Of a stretch of DNA of 32,000 nucleotides, positions 408 through 13,771 are shown one piece after another. The position numbers and the translations under genes are program-made. Within the stretch, counting starts at the first letter, position 1; each line of letters opens with the position of its first letter. Location of the stretch: assembly GCA_008080745.1 (NCBI GenBank), contig SHMX01000003.1:30001-62000 (forward strand), given 5' to 3'. The DNA comes from Candidatus Thorarchaeota archaeon. Lineage in GTDB: Archaea > Asgardarchaeota > Thorarchaeia > Thorarchaeales > Thorarchaeaceae. Under the pieces are notes generated by a model. It worked only from the letters and a program-made list of their open reading frames with translations, was not told the DNA's origin and searched no databases.

Positions 408-1412
408 CTAGCTATCATCTTCTAATGGTGAGAACTGCACTATTGCCCAAGTGATATCGGTTGAAATAACTGGAAGACCATCAATCCCAATATCAAAGAT
501 CTCGCTTGAAACAGTTGGTTCTACCGACGAAACATCTTCAAACAGGATTTGAGTTTCAAGCAATGGTGAAGACATGGATAGTAATCGGTTCTTGAATCCG
601 AATTCCATATTGTGTTCTATGAGAACATCTGCATTGGCATCTCCATTATCTGGAAAGAAAAATGTAAGAAAGTAAGCTACACCACCAAGACATCTTACCA
701 ATTCATTGAGAAATTCTTCACTACTGGTTATATTGGTCAATCCCATATTGGTCGTAATGACCTCTACTGATTTTTCTTTGAAAGGCATCTTTCTAGCATC
801 AAATGCAATAAGGCTTACTTTCTCATAGATACCGAAATGCTCCAATCTATCCTTATTTCTCTGAAGAATACTTGGACTGATATCACTCAAGATGACAGGA
901 TTTTCCAATTCAGAGAATAATTCAGCGAATCCACCCATTCCAGATGCAATATCAATAATGACGCCTGTTTTATCAGAGAGTAATTTTTGTAGCTGTGTTT
1001 TCTTTTCTTGATATGCTTGAGTATAAGAACTAGTATATAGGTCCCTCACGGCTTCAGCTCTAATTTCTCTTGCAGTATCATAGTCTCCTCGCTCATCAAG
1101 AATCATTGAATGTAAGAGTTTGTCTGCGGGATTCAAATTATCCAAATCAGTTTGCATGAGTTTTCGTTCATATTCAGGATTGCTACGCAATGCCTTTGAT
1201 AGATTACTTTGCACAACTTTCCAAAAATCTTCATCATTTGATGCATCTAAAAGAAAAATAGCAATACCATTCTTTACAAAATAAGATTTATGACATGCGA
1301 TACAAGAAACCTCAGCATCAATAATCCGATGATCTGTTTCTTTTTGAATATCCCATGCTAAAGAATCATGACAGATAGGACAATAAAGCAAATTTTGAAT
1401 AGATTTTAGCAT
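408..1412 (-). CDS. Class I SAM-dependent methyltransferase with N-terminal Trm112-like zinc-finger domain
   Basis: N-terminal LYCPICH...VSCIACHKSYFVKNGIAIFL is Trm112-like; SAM motif I is IIDIASGMGG, followed by SDISPSIL and AFDARKMPF. Start moved to ATG 1412 (MLKSIQNLL); the 30-aa extension in the ORF track is AT-rich and looks intergenic. Confidence 0.85.
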   Translation of the reverse strand: MLKSIQNLLYCPICHDSLAWDIQKETDHRIIDAEVSCIACHKSYFVKNGIAIFLLDASNDEDFWKVVQSNLSKALRSNPEYERKLMQTDLDNLNPADKLLHSMILDERGDYDTAREIRAEAVRDLYTSSYTQAYQEKKTQLQKLLSDKTGVIIDIASGMGGFAELFSELENPVILSDISPSILQRNKDRLEHFGIYEKVSLIAFDARKMPFKEKSVEVITTNMGLTNITSSEEFLNELVRCLGGVAYFLTFFFPDNGDANADVLIEHNMEFGFKNRLLSMSSPLLETQILFEDVSSVEPTVSSEIFDIGIDGLPVISTDITWAIVQFSPLEDDS

Positions 1413-1558
1413 GAATATCAAAGATTGAAGATATTCGAAATCTAAAATAGATTTACAACTAAGCAAAATAAAGAAAATAGCCCATTCTATTTTAGAAAAC
1501 AATTCAGTAATTCACTCGTAAAGATTAAGAGGGCTCGTTAATAATTCTAATTTGAGAT

Positions 1559-6559: not shown

Positions 6560-8500
6560 CTATGAAATAATCCCAAGAGCATCTTGGTTCTCATTCTTCA
6601 TCTGCCAGTGAGTGGTCCCAGCTCTGATCTTATTCTGGAGAATAAGATGAGCACGAATGAAATCTGATGGTTTTGGTGGACAACCGGGTAGATAGACATC
6701 CACAGGTACAACCTTATCCGGAGGAGTAACTAGAGAATATCCATCCCAGAACAAACCACCACTTGCAGCACATTGTCCGAAAGAGATAACGAATTTTGGT
6801 TCTGGCATCTGTTCGTAAATTCTTCTTAATCGGGGTGCCATTTTCTTAGTCAGACTTCCAGAAATCCAAAGTACATCAGTCTGACGTGGACCAAATAGAG
6901 GAAGCATTCCAAAGCGTTCCACATCCCAACGAGAAGCAACACCAGCTGCTCCATCAACCATACAACAACCAAGACCATATTGGATTGGCCATGGGCTATG
7001 GGCCCGACCCCAACGGAGAAGCCATTTAATAGGAGGTACATTTTGGAGCCATTTGAGAAGAATTGGTGCAATCCTACCAAAACCATTTCGAAGGAAATCA
7101 AAAGCTACCCACATGAAATATTTTCCAATGCGTAGGATAAATGGCAGCCAGTATGCGAAAATTTTTCCTGGATTTGAAATTTCCTTAGGATCATATTTCA
7201 GCTTCGCACTTCGAATCCGACTGAGTCTTTTCTTTCCAAAATACTCTGCGGCATAATTGGCAAACCATATTCCCGTTGAATGTGCATGTCCACCATGGCG
7301 TTGTGCAATTTTGAAAATGACAAAACTTTGAGACCATGATAACATATAGAACCGACGTCGCTCATCCTCAAGAAAATAGCCCATCATGGTAACTCCTGAT
7401 TTGGACGTGACATAGCCATCCACACCAGCCTTAGCCGATGCCTGTTCGAATTGAAAATCATCAAGAATAGCATGGAGATTTTCTAGAGGTGCAAAAGCCT
7501 GACCAACAACTAAAGTAGGTCCTGCTTTCTTTATCTTCATTGGATAGAAACGTTCTTCCCATTCGTGTTCAGCTACATGACGGTCATATATGGTACCTTT
7601 GTATTCCTCAACAACATTACGAACTATTCTAAGCCCAGCCTCTCGATCTTCATTACTTCCGTCGAATGCAAATAGCACTACGCAATGATGAACCGGATAT
7701 GGGAAAGGTGTATCTTTATCCCAGATTTTCTTCTTGAGATCAACATACTTGCTCTCTTTGAATTTAATAGTATGAGGTAGTGGTGCTTCTTCTATTATCT
7801 TCTCTATTGCCATGTTCATAAGATAATTTTCTGGGAAACTTGCAACGATTGGGTCGATGGGTGTAAGTTTCTTAGCTTTGATTCTTATCTTTGTGATGAT
7901 TCCAAGAATACCCTCTGTATCACAGAACAACTCACGTTCTTTGGTCTCGATGATTCTACCATTTGGGAGTACCACTTCAAACTCAAGAACACTGTCATTA
8001 ACTAATCCGTATTTCAACGAGCCAATACCATCTCCACCCTGAGCAACCCACCCACCAACAGTTGCTGAAAGACCTGATGAAGGGTAGCAACGAAGGTCCA
8101 AACCATGACGGTTAAGATGATGCTGAAGATGCGCCCAAGATATTCCTGGTTCGGTAATCACCCATTCTTCTTCCTCGTTTATCTCAAGAACACGATTCAT
8201 TTCTCGCATATCAACAATGATTCCGCCCTTACGAGGAATAGCTCCACCATAGCCAGATGTCCCAGCTCCACGGGGAACAAGGGGAACCTCCTCTTCGTTA
8301 GCAAATTTGTAAAGAGCCTTTACCTCTTCTGTAGTAACAGGCCTAACAAGAGCGTCAGGGTTGTTGTTCATCAGCCAACCAACCTGTTTAGGTAGAGACC
8401 CCACATCCTGGGAATGAACTATCAATTCGTGTTTAGCAGTGACCAATCGATGGTTGAATATCGCCTTGAGTTTCTCAAGCTGCTTTTCCTTCAATCCCAT
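6560..8500 (-). CDS. FAD-linked oxidoreductase (VAO/PCMH, GlcD-like fold) fused to a C-terminal NADH-quinone oxidoreductase subunit B (NuoB/Nqo6) domain
   Basis: FAD-binding motif PDALVRP...LVPRGAGTSGYGG and family C-terminal motif KYDPKEISNPGKI. Then RWGRAHSPWP...GLGCCM...PRQTDVL...KMAP...YEQMPEPK...GQCAASGG...VPVDVYLPGCPP, the NuoB signature. One uninterrupted 646-aa frame. Confidence 0.92.
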   Translation of the reverse strand: MGLKEKQLEKLKAIFNHRLVTAKHELIVHSQDVGSLPKQVGWLMNNNPDALVRPVTTEEVKALYKFANEEEVPLVPRGAGTSGYGGAIPRKGGIIVDMREMNRVLEINEEEEWVITEPGISWAHLQHHLNRHGLDLRCYPSSGLSATVGGWVAQGGDGIGSLKYGLVNDSVLEFEVVLPNGRIIETKERELFCDTEGILGIITKIRIKAKKLTPIDPIVASFPENYLMNMAIEKIIEEAPLPHTIKFKESKYVDLKKKIWDKDTPFPYPVHHCVVLFAFDGSNEDREAGLRIVRNVVEEYKGTIYDRHVAEHEWEERFYPMKIKKAGPTLVVGQAFAPLENLHAILDDFQFEQASAKAGVDGYVTSKSGVTMMGYFLEDERRRFYMLSWSQSFVIFKIAQRHGGHAHSTGIWFANYAAEYFGKKRLSRIRSAKLKYDPKEISNPGKIFAYWLPFILRIGKYFMWVAFDFLRNGFGRIAPILLKWLQNVPPIKWLLRWGRAHSPWPIQYGLGCCMVDGAAGVASRWDVERFGMLPLFGPRQTDVLWISGSLTKKMAPRLRRIYEQMPEPKFVISFGQCAASGGLFWDGYSLVTPPDKVVPVDVYLPGCPPKPSDFIRAHLILQNKIRAGTTHWQMKNENQDALGIIS

Positions 8501-8672: not shown

Positions 8673-9905
8673 GTGAAACGAATGGAATTTCCATCTCTAA
8701 AAGAACGTGGTCTAGATATTCACGCATTCACATGTGCCCAATGTAGCTTCTGCCAAGTTGGGCATGGAGCATGTCCCACCTACAAGGTGAAACGTGTAGA
8801 TAGCTATTCAGGAAAAGGAAAGATGCTGATAACTAGAGCTCTAGCTCAAAAAAGAATTAGTAAGGAAGAGGGTCTCGAAGGATTACGTGATGGAATATTT
8901 GGATGCACACTCTGTGGTGGATGTGAAGAAGTTTGCCAAGTAGATATTCCATTCATTCAAATATACCAGTTGATGCGATCAGACTTCAAGGATATGGGGA
9001 TGTGGCCCGAAGGTCTTGGTGATGCGAAAGCTATGCTCATGAAATCAAGAAATATTCAAGGCCAACCACAGATGGATCGAATTGAGGGATGGTCTTATTG
9101 GCATCCAGAGGAAGATTACCTACTTGATCGTGAAGGTGTAAAAAGTAAGACGGCAATTTTTTTGGGTTGTGCCTCATCCTTCAAAGCGGTACCAATTCAG
9201 GCTTCAATTGCAACAGCCATGATAATGGAGAAGATTGATGAAGAATTCACCATGCTTGGAGAAGAGGAATGGTGTTGTGGGGCCCCCCTCATAATGACAG
9301 GGGATTTCGAAGGAGCTAAAGAGTTTGCCCTTCATAATATTCGGAAATACAAAGAATTGGGAGTTGAGAGAATCGTCACTAATTGCCCCGGATGTTATAA
9401 GATGTGGGCTCATGAATACCATGAGTTTCTAGATATAGATCATGAGTTCGAAATAATATATGGTGCAGATTTCTTCATGCGACTGATTGACGAGGGAAAG
9501 ATGAACAATATCAGTAGCGATTACGAGGCCACCGTAACTTTTCATGATGGGTGCGATGCTGGACGAAATGCAGGATTCTATGAAGAACCTAGAAAAGTAC
9601 TTGAAAATCTCCCAGGGGTCACGTTTGAAGAGTTACCCCATAATAAAGCAAATTGTTATTGTTGCGGTTCGGGTGGAGTTCTGAGAGCTTTTGACAACGA
9701 ATTCGCACTTCAGATTAATGAGTTAAAAGTGGAAGATATTGAACAGACAAATACCGATATCGTAGTTTCCATGTGCCCATCATGTGTTGACTTTATGCAT
9801 GGTCAGCTACCTGTAGCCGGTTCCGAAAAGGCCTCGATGGATTTGGCTGTAATCATAGCAAAATCTCTTGGTCTTGAATGGGAGGGATTGGACGAAGTAT
9901 ATTAG
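8673..9905 (+). CDS. Fe-S oxidoreductase, GlpC/GlcF/HdrD-like (2x[4Fe-4S] domain plus two CCG domains)
   Basis: CAQCSFC...CP and CTLCGGCEEVC ferredoxin-type motifs; CCG domains EEWCCG...CPGC and HDGC...CYCCG...CPSC. Start GTG 8673 or ATG 8682. Confidence 0.9.
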   Translation: MKRMEFPSLKERGLDIHAFTCAQCSFCQVGHGACPTYKVKRVDSYSGKGKMLITRALAQKRISKEEGLEGLRDGIFGCTLCGGCEEVCQVDIPFIQIYQLMRSDFKDMGMWPEGLGDAKAMLMKSRNIQGQPQMDRIEGWSYWHPEEDYLLDREGVKSKTAIFLGCASSFKAVPIQASIATAMIMEKIDEEFTMLGEEEWCCGAPLIMTGDFEGAKEFALHNIRKYKELGVERIVTNCPGCYKMWAHEYHEFLDIDHEFEIIYGADFFMRLIDEGKMNNISSDYEATVTFHDGCDAGRNAGFYEEPRKVLENLPGVTFEELPHNKANCYCCGSGGVLRAFDNEFALQINELKVEDIEQTNTDIVVSMCPSCVDFMHGQLPVAGSEKASMDLAVIIAKSLGLEWEGLDEVY

Positions 9906-9906
9906 T

Positions 9907-11001
9907 TCAATCCATGAATAATTTAATGCTAAATAGTGGTCCAATGAAAATAGTCAGAAGAAGCGCAATCTCCCAGGGTAGCATAAGGCCCAGCATAAGA
10001 TAAGCAATACATAGTAATATGCCAGTAATCATGTGATTTTGAATGGTGCCTACATTAGCAGAAACAAGTTTTGGTATGGTATCAAAATTTGTAAGAGTCA
10101 CTATTGAGCATTTGATAGCAAGTGGAATCGTAATCAATGCGAGAAGAGTATGGAGATGTACATACCCTAGGAGCATTCCAATTATCAGAAAGATATAGGT
10201 AGCAAACATGATTAGACTGTATCCAATCGAGGCTTTTTTTCTGCCAAGTCTAACAACTAGAGTCTTCTTTCCAGCATCACGGTCAGCATCATGATCGGGA
10301 AATTCGTTGATGTAGAGAACCCCCATGATTAGAAAGGCGATGGGTAATGAAGCGATGATGGGTTCTATTAGAGCTTGGAGGAGAAGGAATGGAATTGATA
10401 GGAGGGGTTCAAGGAGGATACTTTGAACAGAATAAGGATATTGAACATAGTATGCACCGATTACCATTAACGTACCAAAATTCAGAGCAATAAAAAACTC
10501 ACCGAATCCGCGTGTCACGAGCTTGAAAGGAGGAGCGGTGTAGAAGAATCCAGAACCAACTCCAATGACTCCAAGCAGTATTATGAAAATACCCAATTGT
10601 AAGAACAGATAGATTCCAATCAGGGCTCCGATTACAAAAAAGACTAAAGAGCCAATTAATACCTCACGCGCTGAAAGAAACCCTCTTTGAATCATTCTAC
10701 TACCCCCTGTAAAGGGGCGTATGAATTCTTTGTTAATATCGTCTGATCCAGTCAGGTCTTCGCTATGATCAAAATAATCATTGGAAACATTAGCTCCTAT
10801 ATGAAGACAAATACCTGCAATTAATGTTAGGAGAAAATAGTCCAATCGAAACACCGAATGCAATCCCCAGGCAATAGCAGACCCTAGTAAAATTGGAATA
10901 GTAGATGCTGTAAGAAATGGAACTCTTAGCTCTATTAACCAAGCTCGGAATTTACCAGGATTCATTTTATCCTGAACTGGAATCGATTCGTCTTCGGTCA
11001 T
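9907..11001 (-). CDS. menA: 1,4-dihydroxy-2-naphthoate polyprenyltransferase (MenA, UbiA superfamily)
   Basis: NVSNDYFD, FYTAPPFKL..RGFGE and NEFPDHDADRDAGKKTLVVRLG motifs; multiple TM helices. Start reassigned to ATG 11001 (or 11010), because the longer ORF overlaps the divergent gene. Confidence 0.85.
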   Translation of the reverse strand: MTEDESIPVQDKMNPGKFRAWLIELRVPFLTASTIPILLGSAIAWGLHSVFRLDYFLLTLIAGICLHIGANVSNDYFDHSEDLTGSDDINKEFIRPFTGGSRMIQRGFLSAREVLIGSLVFFVIGALIGIYLFLQLGIFIILLGVIGVGSGFFYTAPPFKLVTRGFGEFFIALNFGTLMVIGAYYVQYPYSVQSILLEPLLSIPFLLLQALIEPIIASLPIAFLIMGVLYINEFPDHDADRDAGKKTLVVRLGRKKASIGYSLIMFATYIFLIIGMLLGYVHLHTLLALITIPLAIKCSIVTLTNFDTIPKLVSANVGTIQNHMITGILLCIAYLMLGLMLPWEIALLLTIFIGPLFSIKLFMD

Positions 11002-11120
11002 AAGAAACATGCATCCAAATCCAATCCAATAGAAAAGATTTGCCCCAGAACGAATTTGGTCCAGAATCGCAAGTGCTAATAAGTTAATTTTTCTACAAGC
11101 ACTATCACGGAGGAGCTCTC

Positions 11121-12191
11121 TTGGAGGAAAAACCCAAAGACTTGATGAAAGGTATACCAATAACTGATGGTGAAAAACTGATCAGGGATAACCAAGAAGA
11201 GATTATACTAAAGGAGTCCTTCAAGAAACTCTATAGACATCCAGCATTAGTCGAAAGAGTTACTAGAATTGAAAAGAGCATTCAGGATTTTATCAGAAAT
11301 AATGATGGTCAACCACAAATTCTCTATGATGCGGCCAACCACTTGATTCAAGCAGGAGGTAAGAGAACGAGGTCGCTTCTCTCTTTGCTCGCCTGTGAAT
11401 CAGTGGGTGGCGATACGGAAAAAGCCCTACCTCTTACAATAGCAGCTGAATTATTGCAGACAGCTTCATTGATTCATGACGATATCATTGATGCGGGGAC
11501 AACTCGAAGAGGGGTCGAAACAGTCCACCAAAAATATGGCCATCATATAGCAATCTTAGCAGGAGACCTCCTAATTGCAAAGTCAATAGAAATGATTGGT
11601 AAACATGGCTCAACCGAGCTTCTACAGCACATTGGAAATGGCGGTGTCAGGATGTGTGAAGGAGAGGCAATCGATCTTGCCCTAAGTACAGATAAGCCAG
11701 ATGTATTCTCAAAAGATCAATATTTCAAAATGATTGAACTAAAAACCGTCGCATTTCTTAGTGAATCAGCAAGGCTAGGAGCCATGATGGGAGAGGGAAC
11801 AGAAGATCATGTGGAGGTTCTATCCGAGTTTGGAGAACATTTGGGATATGCATTCCAGATTCAAGATGATATGCTTGATATGAGAACAACCCATGAAGAG
11901 AGCGGCAAGGTTCCTCTTGCCGATTTAAAAAGTCGAAGATGTAATTTCCTCTTGGTCCATGCGTTAGAGGTTTCACACCAGAGCCATATAGACACCATCA
12001 ATCAAGCGATAAATGAAGGTAAATTCTTTGATGCCGCAGAATATATTTTAGAAACTGGTGCAGAACAGGTAGCAATGGATTTAGCTGAAGGTTATGTGAA
12101 AAAGGCAAAAGAAACTCTATTACAAAGTAACCTAAGAGGCATAGACTTGCTCAATGAATTTGCAGACTCTGTAATTCACCGAAACCGTTGA
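11121..12191 (+). CDS. All-trans polyprenyl diphosphate synthase, probably medium/long-chain
   Basis: GGKRTR, FARM TASLIHDDIID..RRG, GEAID, KT, SARM FQIQDDMLD. TTG start preceded by GGAGG. Confidence 0.9.
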   Translation: MEEKPKDLMKGIPITDGEKLIRDNQEEIILKESFKKLYRHPALVERVTRIEKSIQDFIRNNDGQPQILYDAANHLIQAGGKRTRSLLSLLACESVGGDTEKALPLTIAAELLQTASLIHDDIIDAGTTRRGVETVHQKYGHHIAILAGDLLIAKSIEMIGKHGSTELLQHIGNGGVRMCEGEAIDLALSTDKPDVFSKDQYFKMIELKTVAFLSESARLGAMMGEGTEDHVEVLSEFGEHLGYAFQIQDDMLDMRTTHEESGKVPLADLKSRRCNFLLVHALEVSHQSHIDTINQAINEGKFFDAAEYILETGAEQVAMDLAEGYVKKAKETLLQSNLRGIDLLNEFADSVIHRNR

Positions 12192-12199
12192 TTTTGAAC

Positions 12200-13393
12200 C
12201 TAATTAAGAATCCTCGTTAAAGGAATTAGAATTTTTGACCCAAGCTTAACAGCAAAAGGCAATCTACATCTAATCAATGATTCAAGCAGATATGGACCAG
12301 CAAGGCTCATACAGATATGTGTTACAATATCATTAGACAGTACTGAATCTGCGATATTCCTAACAGCAACAGCTGAGCTAAGTGTTTGTCCAATCTCTGA
12401 GGTCCACCTTAGGGCATAATCTGATAGCGGAGTGGATTTCGAAAAGTGATCTAGTATTGTTTCTGCTGCTATCTCTCCACCAATAATAGCCGTTGGAATT
12501 CCCCCACCATTTGACGCCATAACATGACTTGCCGCATCACCCACTAACAGAACATTGTTACTAAAGGTGCGGCCAACGGGACCTCCAATAGGTATTAGCG
12601 CAGAAACTCTTTGTTCAATTTCTCCACCTCTCATAAGAGGAGATATCAGAGGATTGTGTTTCATGAGATGCTGCAAAAGTACTCGCAAAGGAGTATTGAA
12701 CTTGTTGAAGTGTTGTCTTAGACCGAGTCCAAAATTTACTCTCCCATCTCCTTTAGGGATAATCCACGCATATCCACCAGGCGCTATTTGCTCACCAAAA
12801 TACATCTCGGTAACATCAGGATTACAATGAGTGTTCTTTACCACGAATTGAATAGAGTGACTAACAGCAGAAGAATCTAGGATGTTACCAATGGAACGGG
12901 ATATCATCGAATTGGGACCGTCTGCACCTACTACAACCCGCGCTGAAAGTGTTCGAGTGCTGTTTCCTTTTCTGATTTTCAGTTTGTTCGAAGAAGACCT
13001 TTTTGCAACACTAGAATCCAGATATAATTCAGCACCAGAATCAATGGCTTCGTCTACCAGATGTTTGTCATACAATTTGCGATCAATAATGTTTGCTTTG
13101 AATCTGAATCGAGTTCTATTACCAAAAGGAGAAACCAGATGTGTCCAATAAGTCTGGTTTGTTACAAATCGTGAAGGAATGCAAGCAATTCTCTTAGCTC
13201 TTGATGAATAAGGAAATAGATCCGCACATTCTGTAGATGTTGGAAAATATTCACCACATTGGATTGGAACCCCGATTGTCTTTCTTCTCTCTATAAGTGC
13301 TACATGTAAACCATTCTCAGCTAACATGTGAGCTACGGTACTTCCTGCAGGACCTGCACCGACAACAGCAACGTCGTAATCAGTGTCTCGCAT
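12200..13393 (-). CDS. Geranylgeranyl reductase family flavoprotein (GGR/MenJ-like)
   Basis: VVGAGPAGS FAD motif, QCGE, PGGYAWIIPK, LVGDAA..V..SNGGGI. Confidence 0.9.
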   Translation of the reverse strand: MRDTDYDVAVVGAGPAGSTVAHMLAENGLHVALIERRKTIGVPIQCGEYFPTSTECADLFPYSSRAKRIACIPSRFVTNQTYWTHLVSPFGNRTRFRFKANIIDRKLYDKHLVDEAIDSGAELYLDSSVAKRSSSNKLKIRKGNSTRTLSARVVVGADGPNSMISRSIGNILDSSAVSHSIQFVVKNTHCNPDVTEMYFGEQIAPGGYAWIIPKGDGRVNFGLGLRQHFNKFNTPLRVLLQHLMKHNPLISPLMRGGEIEQRVSALIPIGGPVGRTFSNNVLLVGDAASHVMASNGGGIPTAIIGGEIAAETILDHFSKSTPLSDYALRWTSEIGQTLSSAVAVRNIADSVLSNDIVTHICMSLAGPYLLESLIRCRLPFAVKLGSKILIPLTRILN

Positions 13394-13420: not shown

Positions 13421-13771
13421 TTACCATTTTTCGGAGAAAAATACTAGCCAAGCAACAACAGCCTCAAGATTGCTTAAGATTAATTCATCCAGTCTGAATA
13501 AAGTAGAACCACTCGAGGTCGATATATAATCTGATCCCAAACGAAATCTAGTGGAACCAGAGGAACTAGTAACAGAAGAATTACTGTATCTCCCAATGGT
13601 ACTACCGGATGAATTGGTAACATACCCATCTCGGACTCTGCCAATAGTGCTTCCTGAGCTACTCATGACTGAGCCAGATGAGAATCTTCCAATGGTGCTT
13701 CCTGACGAATTGGTGATGTAATCACCTCGAACATAACCAATTGTAGAACCACTACTGTTCATTATTCTCAT
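13421..13771 (-). CDS. Ser/Gly-rich tandem-repeat protein resembling 5-fold beta-flower repeat proteins
   Basis: Six 16-aa repeats with an [IV]x[NST]SSGST core and a hydrophobic C-terminal helix (LEAVVAWLVFF). Confidence 0.7.
   Translation of the reverse strand: MRIMNSSGSTIGYVRGDYITNSSGSTIGRFSSGSVMSSSGSTIGRVRDGYVTNSSGSTIGRYSNSSVTSSSGSTRFRLGSDYISTSSGSTLFRLDELILSNLEAVVAWLVFFSEKW

Follow-up and report, generated by a model that had tools for sequence, protein, structure and literature searches.

The question raised by positions 9907-13393 of this DNA is whether an Asgard archaeon builds the prenyl tail of a membrane electron carrier and, if it does, which ring receives that tail. The stretch analysed (hereafter the window) comprises 32,000 nucleotides, C3:30001-62000 of a Candidatus Thorarchaeota assembly (3.16 Mb in 19 contigs, 98% complete; genome label G000). 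Three genes lie at these positions, encoding a UbiA-superfamily prenyltransferase of the MenA/UBIAD1 type, a trans-polyprenyl diphosphate synthase (PPS1) and a flavin adenine dinucleotide (FAD)-dependent prenyl reductase of the geranylgeranyl reductase (GGR) family (GGR1). They stand next to a redox module with a FAD_binding_4 flavoprotein fused to NuoB (FAD-NuoB) and an HdrD-like iron-sulfur protein. The initial annotation took the trio for a cassette that makes a partly saturated menaquinone. This interpretation is partly supported: what stands is a tail cassette that has its own reductase and is tied to the redox module, and a self-sufficient menaquinone pathway is not upheld. The reading we favour, tentatively and at a little short of an even chance, is that the three genes make and attach the side chain of a naphthoquinone-type membrane carrier whose head group is imported.

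The contiguity of the trio is confirmed, and the same three genes recur together in related loci, so their adjacency is not due to chance. Distribution counts were made over 87 genomes of the class (24 of them high-quality; genera coded g1-g17), and gene-neighbourhood counts over 30 Thorarchaeial loci around orthologues of the cassette UbiA. Such orthologues are present in 65 of the 87 genomes and in 21 of the 24 high-quality ones; among the 87, none was found in g16 (0 of 7), g17 or the genome G079. UbiA and PPS1 are divergent neighbours in about 24 of the 30 loci, GGR1 is next in at least 15, and an HdrD-like gene lies on the other side of UbiA in about 10. PPS1 orthologues (38-72% identical) co-distribute with UbiA. 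Those UbiA-less genomes of g16 and g17 that gave a synthase match have only a second type, PPS2 (about 30% identity to PPS1), and because this enzyme is kept without UbiA, PPS2 is the housekeeping synthase and PPS1 is specific to the cassette. GGR1 orthologues (38-63% identical) occur in 59 of the 87 genomes, nearly always a few kb from PPS1 and UbiA, and were seen only in genomes having that pair. Conserved synteny and nested phyletic patterns together support the trio as a functional unit. The same GGR-PPS-UbiA arrangement is found in a Thermoplasmatota metagenome-assembled genome (MAG; L133), and its UbiA is not sister to the Thorarchaeial clade in a FastTree phylogeny of 98 UbiA sequences, which gives coarse placement only; this suggests that the trio may have been put together independently there. 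In the same coarse tree, the UbiA proteins of g13 and g15, which are carotenoid-linked and come without GGR1 or FAD-NuoB, stand apart from the main Thorarchaeial clade (g1-g12, g14), a split that hints at two UbiA lineages or two acquisitions.

The cassette UbiA matches the Pfam family PF01040 with 111 bits. Its top four NCBIfam models are all 1,4-dihydroxy-2-naphthoate (DHNA) polyprenyltransferases (147, 130, 130 and 124 bits), and all four scores are under the curated equivalog cut-offs that were applied throughout. UBIAD1 (8djk, E 2e-10) is its sole PDB match. E. coli MenA aligns with it end to end (28% identity over 301 amino acids, E 8e-22), including both Asp-rich motifs, NDYxD...GSD and NxxxDxxxDxxxGKxTLVVRLG, and the protein is thus of the UbiA superfamily, with both motifs collinear with those of a characterised MenA. 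The label menA, as given in the initial annotation, holds at the level of the UbiA/MenA-type family and fails at the level of the MenA equivalog. Automatic menA labels in Asgard and other MAGs are no proof of menaquinone synthesis.

PPS1 belongs to PF00348 (208 bits), and every chain-length-specific model scores it under the cut-off: 222 against 468 bits for IdsA, 163 against 457 for HepT, 153 against 383 for solanesyl synthase, 126 against 412 for octaprenyl synthase and 148 against 600 for GFPS_Meth, so that it falls within no long-chain equivalog. Its first motif reads LLQTASLIHDDIID, with Ala at -5 and Ser at -4, and the context of the first aspartate-rich motif is QTASLIHDDIID. Two DDxxD motifs, small residues at -5 and -4 and a first motif without insertion give a long-chain-type pattern. 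The stretch QTASLIHDD is unchanged across 16 PPS1 orthologues, and its pattern is shared by IspB, the octaprenyl synthase of E. coli (HTATLLHDD). The sequence TASLIHDD, with Ala five residues before the first DDxxD, is therefore present as the initial annotation had it, and the motif is indeed of the long-chain type. The rule built on it, that a small residue at -5 means a long chain, fails to tell the two synthases of this genome apart, since PPS2 has Gly-Ser at -5 and -4 and the small-residue motif is not exclusive to PPS1. Given this motif in PPS2, and given that the GGPP (geranylgeranyl diphosphate) synthase 1wy0 is the top PDB match of both enzymes (155 bits for PPS1), the motif rule alone decides nothing. 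PPS1 outscores PPS2 on the HepT (163 against 113 bits), solanesyl (153 against 112) and hexaprenyl (139 against 102) models, and on short-chain models the two score about equally. In the PDB, PPS1 matches hexa-, octa-, nona- and decaprenyl synthases at 118-124 bits, and the matches of PPS2 above 1e-30 are short-chain enzymes only. Taken together, the product of PPS1 is likely longer than C20. Two relatives show variations on this gene: the genome G062 has a second PPS-like gene beside PPS1 (L064:10436-11308, 290 amino acids) that lacks DDxxD and, by analogy with heteromeric medium-chain synthases, might encode a non-catalytic partner, and G029 has two PPS1-type copies 8 kb apart (L067:17257-18336).

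GGR1 is a member of the GGR family (TIGR02032, 233 bits against a cut-off of 158.8) and falls well outside its characterised subgroups, with 78.5 bits against 700 for the MenJ model (NF045655) and 120-124 bits against 580-780 for the lipid-reductase equivalogs. Its top PDB match is the Thermoplasma lipid reductase 3oz2 (117 bits), to whose conserved stretches its own PIQCGE, YAWIIPKG and LLVGDAA align; we take these to be the catalytic Cys, substrate-lid and flavin motifs of the GGR family. Among the 87 genomes GGR1 was not found in five genera (g7, g13, g15, g16 and g17), and the sampled genomes of g13, g15 and g16, which lack it, hold 8-11 GGR-family genes. Because it is missing from genera with that many other GGR genes, GGR1 is a specialised paralogue and not a lipid saturase. 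Housekeeping saturation of digeranylgeranylglycerophospholipid as its role was rejected on this distribution, and the scores do not place it in the lipid-reductase families either. The suggestion of the initial annotation that this GGR may act on quinones rather than membrane lipids is supported in so far as GGR1 is a specialised paralogue and not the housekeeping lipid reductase. GGR1 may work in a MenJ-like way without being a member of the MenJ family. Its predicted substrate would be either a prenyl diphosphate, as for ChlP, or the finished quinone, as for MenJ and AF0648, and both are compatible with the sequence.

In the redox module, the best NCBIfam models of the HdrD-like neighbour are TfrB, the quinone-type L-lactate dehydrogenase LdhH and GlpC. 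All three belong to oxidoreductase complexes associated with the membrane, and at least in the case of LdhH and GlpC the electrons go to membrane quinones. FAD-NuoB orthologues are full-length and 74-90% identical in g1-g12 and unfused in g14, and none was found in g13, g15 or g16. Bar one genome, the distribution of GGR1 is that of the FAD-NuoB/HdrD module, and the UbiA/PPS1 pair is more widely distributed. The association of the cassette with the NuoB-fusion module, as first proposed, is thus upheld by linkage in related loci and by the co-distribution of GGR1.

Other genera elaborate the surroundings of the cassette. In g6 and g12 it is flanked by CcmA/B/C and by a second pair of FAD_binding_4 and HdrD genes. 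Ccm genes lie directly beside the cassette at L060:10936-13040 (G010) and L064:5614-7970 (G062), and also beside relatives of the cassette UbiA in Aerophobetes (L129, L138, L085); this genome itself has no match for CcmB or CcmC. It does have several more FAD_binding_4 and CCG/HdrD-like genes, including one adjacent pair at C6:38454-41008 (L055:454-3008), about 4 kb from a UbiE/MenG gene. In g9 and g11, stand-alone PNPOx-like genes lie between UbiA and the HdrD-like gene, one of them joined to DUF7530 (g9, L063:11943-13695). The best PDB relatives of one stand-alone PNPOx-like protein are Rv2991 and 3f7e, which we take to be mycobacterial F420/FMN-binding split-barrel proteins. The PNPOx-like neighbour types (c25 and c26) and the cassette gene c48 of other genera have no match in this genome, and the gene beside its UbiE showed no similarity to c48 when it was considered as a relative.

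The ring itself is where the genome falls silent, and control genomes were positive as expected in all ring-gene searches. MqnA/D (PF02621) has no match in this genome nor in any of the 87 class genomes, and the top score for MqnC in this genome is only 32 bits. Here MenB finds crotonase-level matches only (164 against 342.7 bits) and MenD finds none; neither exceeds its cut-off in any of the 40 class genomes that are at least 90% complete, the set also used for the chorismate synthase and phytoene synthase counts. For chorismate-binding enzymes, be it isochorismate synthase or another (TrpE, PabB or MenF type), there is no match in this 98%-complete genome, and chorismate synthase has no match in it or in its congener G026. 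From this gene content the organism is probably unable to synthesise aromatic amino acids. Among the 40 near-complete relatives, 18 have chorismate synthase regardless of the cassette, and most of the 22 without it still have the cassette. The genome is thus not one that supplies DHNA by the Men or the futalosine pathway, and, within the limits of a genome that is 98% complete, no known route is left by which it could make menaquinone de novo. The initial annotation had proposed such synthesis and had named the lack of a naphthoquinone ring pathway as fatal to it; the genome search for men and mqn genes finds no such pathway here or across the class. A UbiE/MenG methyltransferase is encoded at C6:45504-46169 (TIGR01934, 168.6 bits against 158.35). 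At E<=1e-40, 44 of the 87 genomes have an orthologue of it, and the UbiA-less genera have none. In g11, about 2 kb separates UbiE from the gene of the housekeeping synthase PPS2.

Under the reading we favour, PPS1 would make an all-trans polyprenyl diphosphate, probably longer than C20, and the MenA/UBIAD1-type enzyme would move this chain onto a naphthoquinol-type head group. GGR1 would reduce some of the double bonds of the tail before or after the transfer, and the unlinked UbiE/MenG-type enzyme would then methylate the ring. The product would be a lipid-soluble electron carrier for the adjacent FAD-NuoB, HdrD-like and complex-I-like module. Of this scheme, the family-level identities of the genes, their conserved linkage and nested distribution and the lack of ring pathways are observed; the length of the chain, the substrate of the reductase, what the head group is and where it comes from, and the coupling to the pump are inferred. 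Because neither a known ring pathway nor chorismate synthesis is available, the head group is most likely imported. Its most likely source would be menaquinone producers living nearby, and it could arrive as DHNA, for instance, or as a compound resembling menadione. Models of Thorarchaeia usually show fermenters or acetogens and assign them no defined electron carrier in the membrane. Their genomes nevertheless encode a complex-I-like pump with an unusual flavoprotein-NuoB head, and a conserved quinone-tail cassette beside that head argues for a lipid-soluble carrier in these archaea. If the ring is scavenged, Asgard archaea would depend on their neighbours for a respiratory cofactor, an instance of cross-feeding that also gives a hint for cultivation, namely to add DHNA or menadione.

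Lifestyles of this kind are known. Porphyromonas pasteri has only menA and ubiE and needs external DHNA, as do some Tannerella (PMC9704088). Like these bacteria, the Thorarchaeia combine a prenyltransferase and a C-methyltransferase with the absence of menF, menD, menH, menC, menE and menB and with life among menaquinone producers. The bacteria differ in having ordinary MenA orthologues and close relatives with the full pathway, whereas the Thorarchaeial enzyme belongs to a separate, ancient MenA-like clade, and the Thorarchaeial cassette has its own prenyl synthase and prenyl reductase and an archaeal host. The animal menadiol prenyltransferase UBIAD1 (8djk) also prenylates a ring that its organism does not make, as is proposed here; it is a distant eukaryotic homologue whose likeness to the Thorarchaeial enzyme is drawn from sequence alone. 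The three enzyme types are those of the cyanobacterial and plant phylloquinone branch, in which a GGPP synthase, a ChlP-type GGR and a phytyl-transferring MenA act together (TIGR02235, TIGR02023). The corresponding models score far under their cut-offs on the Thorarchaeial proteins (menA_cyano-plnt 130 bits, BchP-ChlP 124 bits), and phylloquinone organisms make their own DHNA and a C20 tail, whereas the Thorarchaeial synthase motif is of the long-chain type. Archaeoglobus fulgidus AF0648 is a menaquinone-specific prenyl reductase (Hemmi et al., 2005, cited in PMC10821996). According to PMC10821996, AF0648 lacks the classical GGR motifs; GGR1 retains them. AF0648, mycobacterial MenJ and GGR1 are all GGR-superfamily flavoenzymes and paralogues dedicated to quinone tails, in the case of GGR1 putatively so, beside a separate lipid reductase. 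GGR1 is, for its part, not a MenJ orthologue, at the 78.5 against 700 bits given above. What was already known, then, is the logic of a prenyl synthase, a MenA-type transferase and a GGR (phylloquinone, MenJ, Archaeoglobus) and the occurrence of menA and ubiE without ring genes. What is new is a Thorarchaeial cassette that is conserved and tied to FAD-NuoB, the class-wide absence of ring pathways, and a broad MenA-like clade with the same absence. Literature searches on Thorarchaeial quinones, methanophenazine prenyltransferases and orphan menA in Dehalococcoides found nothing specific.

Four observations weigh against an imported naphthoquinone head group. No system for its uptake was identified. 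The prenyltransferase falls outside the MenA equivalog on every model, the best score being 147 against 264 bits and that of TIGR00751 96.7 against 102.15. The distribution of UbiE is patchy, and at E<=1e-40 several UbiA-positive genera have no orthologue. Finally, the whole MenA-like clade, in the 24 genomes sampled, is without ring pathways and looks more like a clade with a substrate of its own, unlike the salvagers with their apparent recent losses.

This last observation leads to the strongest alternative, in which the tail cassette is the same and the cell makes the ring by an undiscovered route, or the head group is of some class other than the naphthoquinones (an aromatic carrier such as one resembling methanophenazine); we regard it as rather unlikely, though well ahead of the remaining alternatives. 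The clade is wide: 380 clusters match the cassette UbiA at E<1e-30 among 1.84 billion representatives, and the named genomes with members belong to about 20 phyla, mostly of anaerobic bacteria and archaea. The closest members outside the Thorarchaeia (40-51% identical) come from MAGs of Endomicrobiia, Anaerolineae and Micrarchaeia. The motifs RAPFLTA, NDYFDHxSGxD, PFSGGSRxIQxG, FYTAPP and YINEFPDYEADxxxGKxTLVVRLG characterise the clade. All nine non-Thorarchaeial members tested are under the MenA equivalog cut-offs, the closest of them scoring 144-177 against 264-277 bits, and the Thorarchaeial-type representative P0124 has no model match at E<=1e-40. Among 24 diverse genomes holding a clade member, three of them complete chromosomes, MqnA/D was found in none and MenB above its cut-off in none, so that all 24 lack both; one Deltaproteobacterium has a 257-bit MenB/BadI-like protein. 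Since the completeness of most of these genomes is not known, the absence is a strong trend and not a proof.

The neighbourhoods of clade members give a quinone context, which speaks for the reading we favour and for a clade that still makes a functional quinone. A polyprenyl synthase stands beside the clade member in 18 of 80 loci, always with the IspB-type motif [H/Q]-x-A-[S/T]-L-x-HDD and thus with Ala at -5. UbiE is a neighbour in 5 loci, CcmC in three and TatC in several, and a molybdopterin oxidoreductase with an NrfD/PsrC-type anchor, FdhE and MobA is found in three. An apparent bacterial operon (L143:4753-13896, L122, L120) runs from a molybdopterin oxidoreductase through NrfD/PsrC, an FdhE-like protein, in some cases MobA, the MenA-like UbiA and in some cases a polyprenyl synthase to a DUF3463 radical-SAM enzyme and a B12-binding radical-SAM enzyme. 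Both radical-SAM enzymes recur after UbiA in KSB1, Ignavibacteria, Aerophobetes and Spirochaetales, and radical-SAM genes that follow UbiA in several bacterial phyla would suit a ring made by a novel route. They have no close homologue in this genome, where the B12-binding type finds no match and the DUF3463 type finds weak partial matches only (27-29% identity over about 170 amino acids). Longer forms of the prenyltransferase (about 420-525 amino acids) make up about a quarter of the clusters listed. Ten were sampled: in six the N-terminus is a PNPOx-like split-barrel flavin domain, a feature that likewise counts for this alternative, in one there is a PAS domain, and in the other three no additional domain was recognised. 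The PNPOx fusions are about 500 amino acids long (P0129, P0130, P0131, P0147, P0154, P0168), and the PAS fusion is P0137, from a Micrarchaeia MAG. The flavin-domain fusion P0130 matches UBIAD1 (8djk) at E 2e-18. Direct similarity of the Thorarchaeial c25 and c26 to the fused N-terminal domain was looked for pairwise and not found; they have only the Pfam family in common. A PNPOx-like domain might serve to reduce a naphthoquinone that is imported in oxidised form, ahead of its prenylation; alternatively, it might be involved in the chemistry of the ring.

A precedent for another head group would be Methanosarcina, where the genes of a prenyl synthase, a homologue of UbiA and a paralogue of GGR presumably lie together and act in methanophenazine synthesis, the same three-enzyme logic serving a complex-I-like (Fpo) pump. 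Against an undiscovered ring stand several points. To our knowledge, the characterised enzymes of the MenA/UBIAD1 subfamily all take naphthoquinone-type acceptors, and UbiE-type C-methyltransferases and NrfD-type quinol sites suit an ordinary quinone. No candidate ring genes lie near the cassette in the Thorarchaeial loci viewed, and about half of the relatives are without chorismate synthase, which limits endogenous aromatic routes. It is rather unlikely that the clade, with its dedicated long-chain synthase and in Thorarchaeia the dedicated reductase, builds a respiratory carrier with a ring that is a product of neither known pathway, Men or futalosine. Were this the case, a third ring pathway or a new head group, common to Asgard archaea and many subsurface anaerobes, would feed the FAD-NuoB pump, and a widespread quinone pathway would still be to be discovered.

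A non-quinone isoprenoid role (carotenoids, membrane lipids or polyprenols), with the redox adjacency incidental, is improbable. It draws on g13 and g15, where a crtI/lyeJ-like/cruF carotenoid cluster (two CrtI-type desaturases, an LyeJ-like UbiA and a CruF-type hydratase, with a phytoene synthase near) is immediately followed, in the same orientation, by the PPS1-UbiA pair, on five tested UbiA-less genomes that are all without phytoene synthase too, and on the lipid reductase that is the best structural relative of GGR1 by sequence. Phytoene synthase, however, is present in only 13 of the 40 near-complete genomes (1 of 14 in g11), where PPS1 and UbiA are nearly universal, and carotenoids were on that ground rejected as the main role of the pair. 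The carotenoid cluster of this genome is on another contig, at C6:21932-27838. Lipid synthesis is served by a separate DGGGPS-like UbiA and the universal synthase, GGR1 is missing from lineages that must still saturate their lipids, and the MenA-like subfamily is a family of aromatic prenyltransferases. The cluster on C6 is of the bacterioruberin type, with two CrtI-type desaturases, a phytoene synthase, an LyeJ-like UbiA (PRK12875, 281 bits) and a CruF-type hydratase (PF04240), and has relatives at L056-L058 and L069.

Full menaquinone synthesis through the Men or futalosine pathway, finished by the trio, is the least probable alternative by far: the public annotation of orthologues as 1,4-dihydroxy-2-naphthoate octaprenyltransferase speaks for it, as does the related Sif- and Jordarchaeia case, in which menaquinone is assumed to be the complex I acceptor from ubiE, two menA and KEGG-level menB/menC matches (PMC9723677 and its supplement), but the lack of MqnA/D, MenB, MenD, any chorismate-binding enzyme and chorismate synthase already contradicts it.

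The window positions of the cassette and its neighbours are collected in Table 1. The interval 9907-13393 is occupied by three open reading frames (ORFs), 9907-11160(-), 11121-12191(+) and 12200-13393(-). Because the strands alternate, the trio is not a single operon: UbiA and PPS1 are divergent, PPS1 and GGR1 convergent with an 8-bp gap, and the HdrD-like gene is convergent with UbiA at a 1-bp gap. The 40-bp overlap of the longest UbiA and synthase ORFs is an artefact, since the recorded UbiA gene and its orthologues begin at 11010. The true start of PPS1 may be the Met at 11145. Genome-wide, G000 has 8 GGR-family genes, 4 UbiA-family genes and 2 polyprenyl synthases, and the three UbiA-family genes outside the cassette are of the DGGGPS-like, DPPR-synthase-like and PRK12875 types.

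Table 1. Cassette genes, their shared intergenic region and adjoining redox genes, in window coordinates.
Feature	Position	Strand	Remarks
FAD_binding_4 flavoprotein fused to NuoB	6560..8500	-	From domain content; proposed user of the carrier
HdrD/GlpC/TfrB-like CCG iron-sulfur protein	8673..9905	+	CCG and Fer4_8 domains; likely quinone-linked electron-transfer partner
MenA/UBIAD1-type UbiA-superfamily prenyltransferase	9907..11010	-	367 amino acids; longest ORF reaches 11160
UbiA/synthase shared intergenic region	11011..11120	.	Presumed bidirectional promoter, from recorded and orthologue gene starts
PPS1, trans-polyprenyl diphosphate synthase	11121..12191	+	PF00348; second motif FQIQDDMLD
GGR1, GGR-family FAD-dependent prenyl reductase	12200..13393	-	TIGR02032; 1 of 8 paralogues in the genome

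Two further genes of the window deserve mention. Directly beyond GGR1, at 13421-13771(-), a 116-amino-acid 5-fold beta-flower protein is encoded (PF21785, 66 bits), for which a similar site was seen in one other genome only (L066). At 408-1502(-), a protein of 364 amino acids combines an N-terminal half of about 160 amino acids, to which no domain is assigned, with a weak UbiE/COQ5-type methyltransferase domain (42 bits, residues 168-279). Its gene has the complex-I-like operon on one side and the redox module on the other, and by its domain the protein is a possible second ring methyltransferase.

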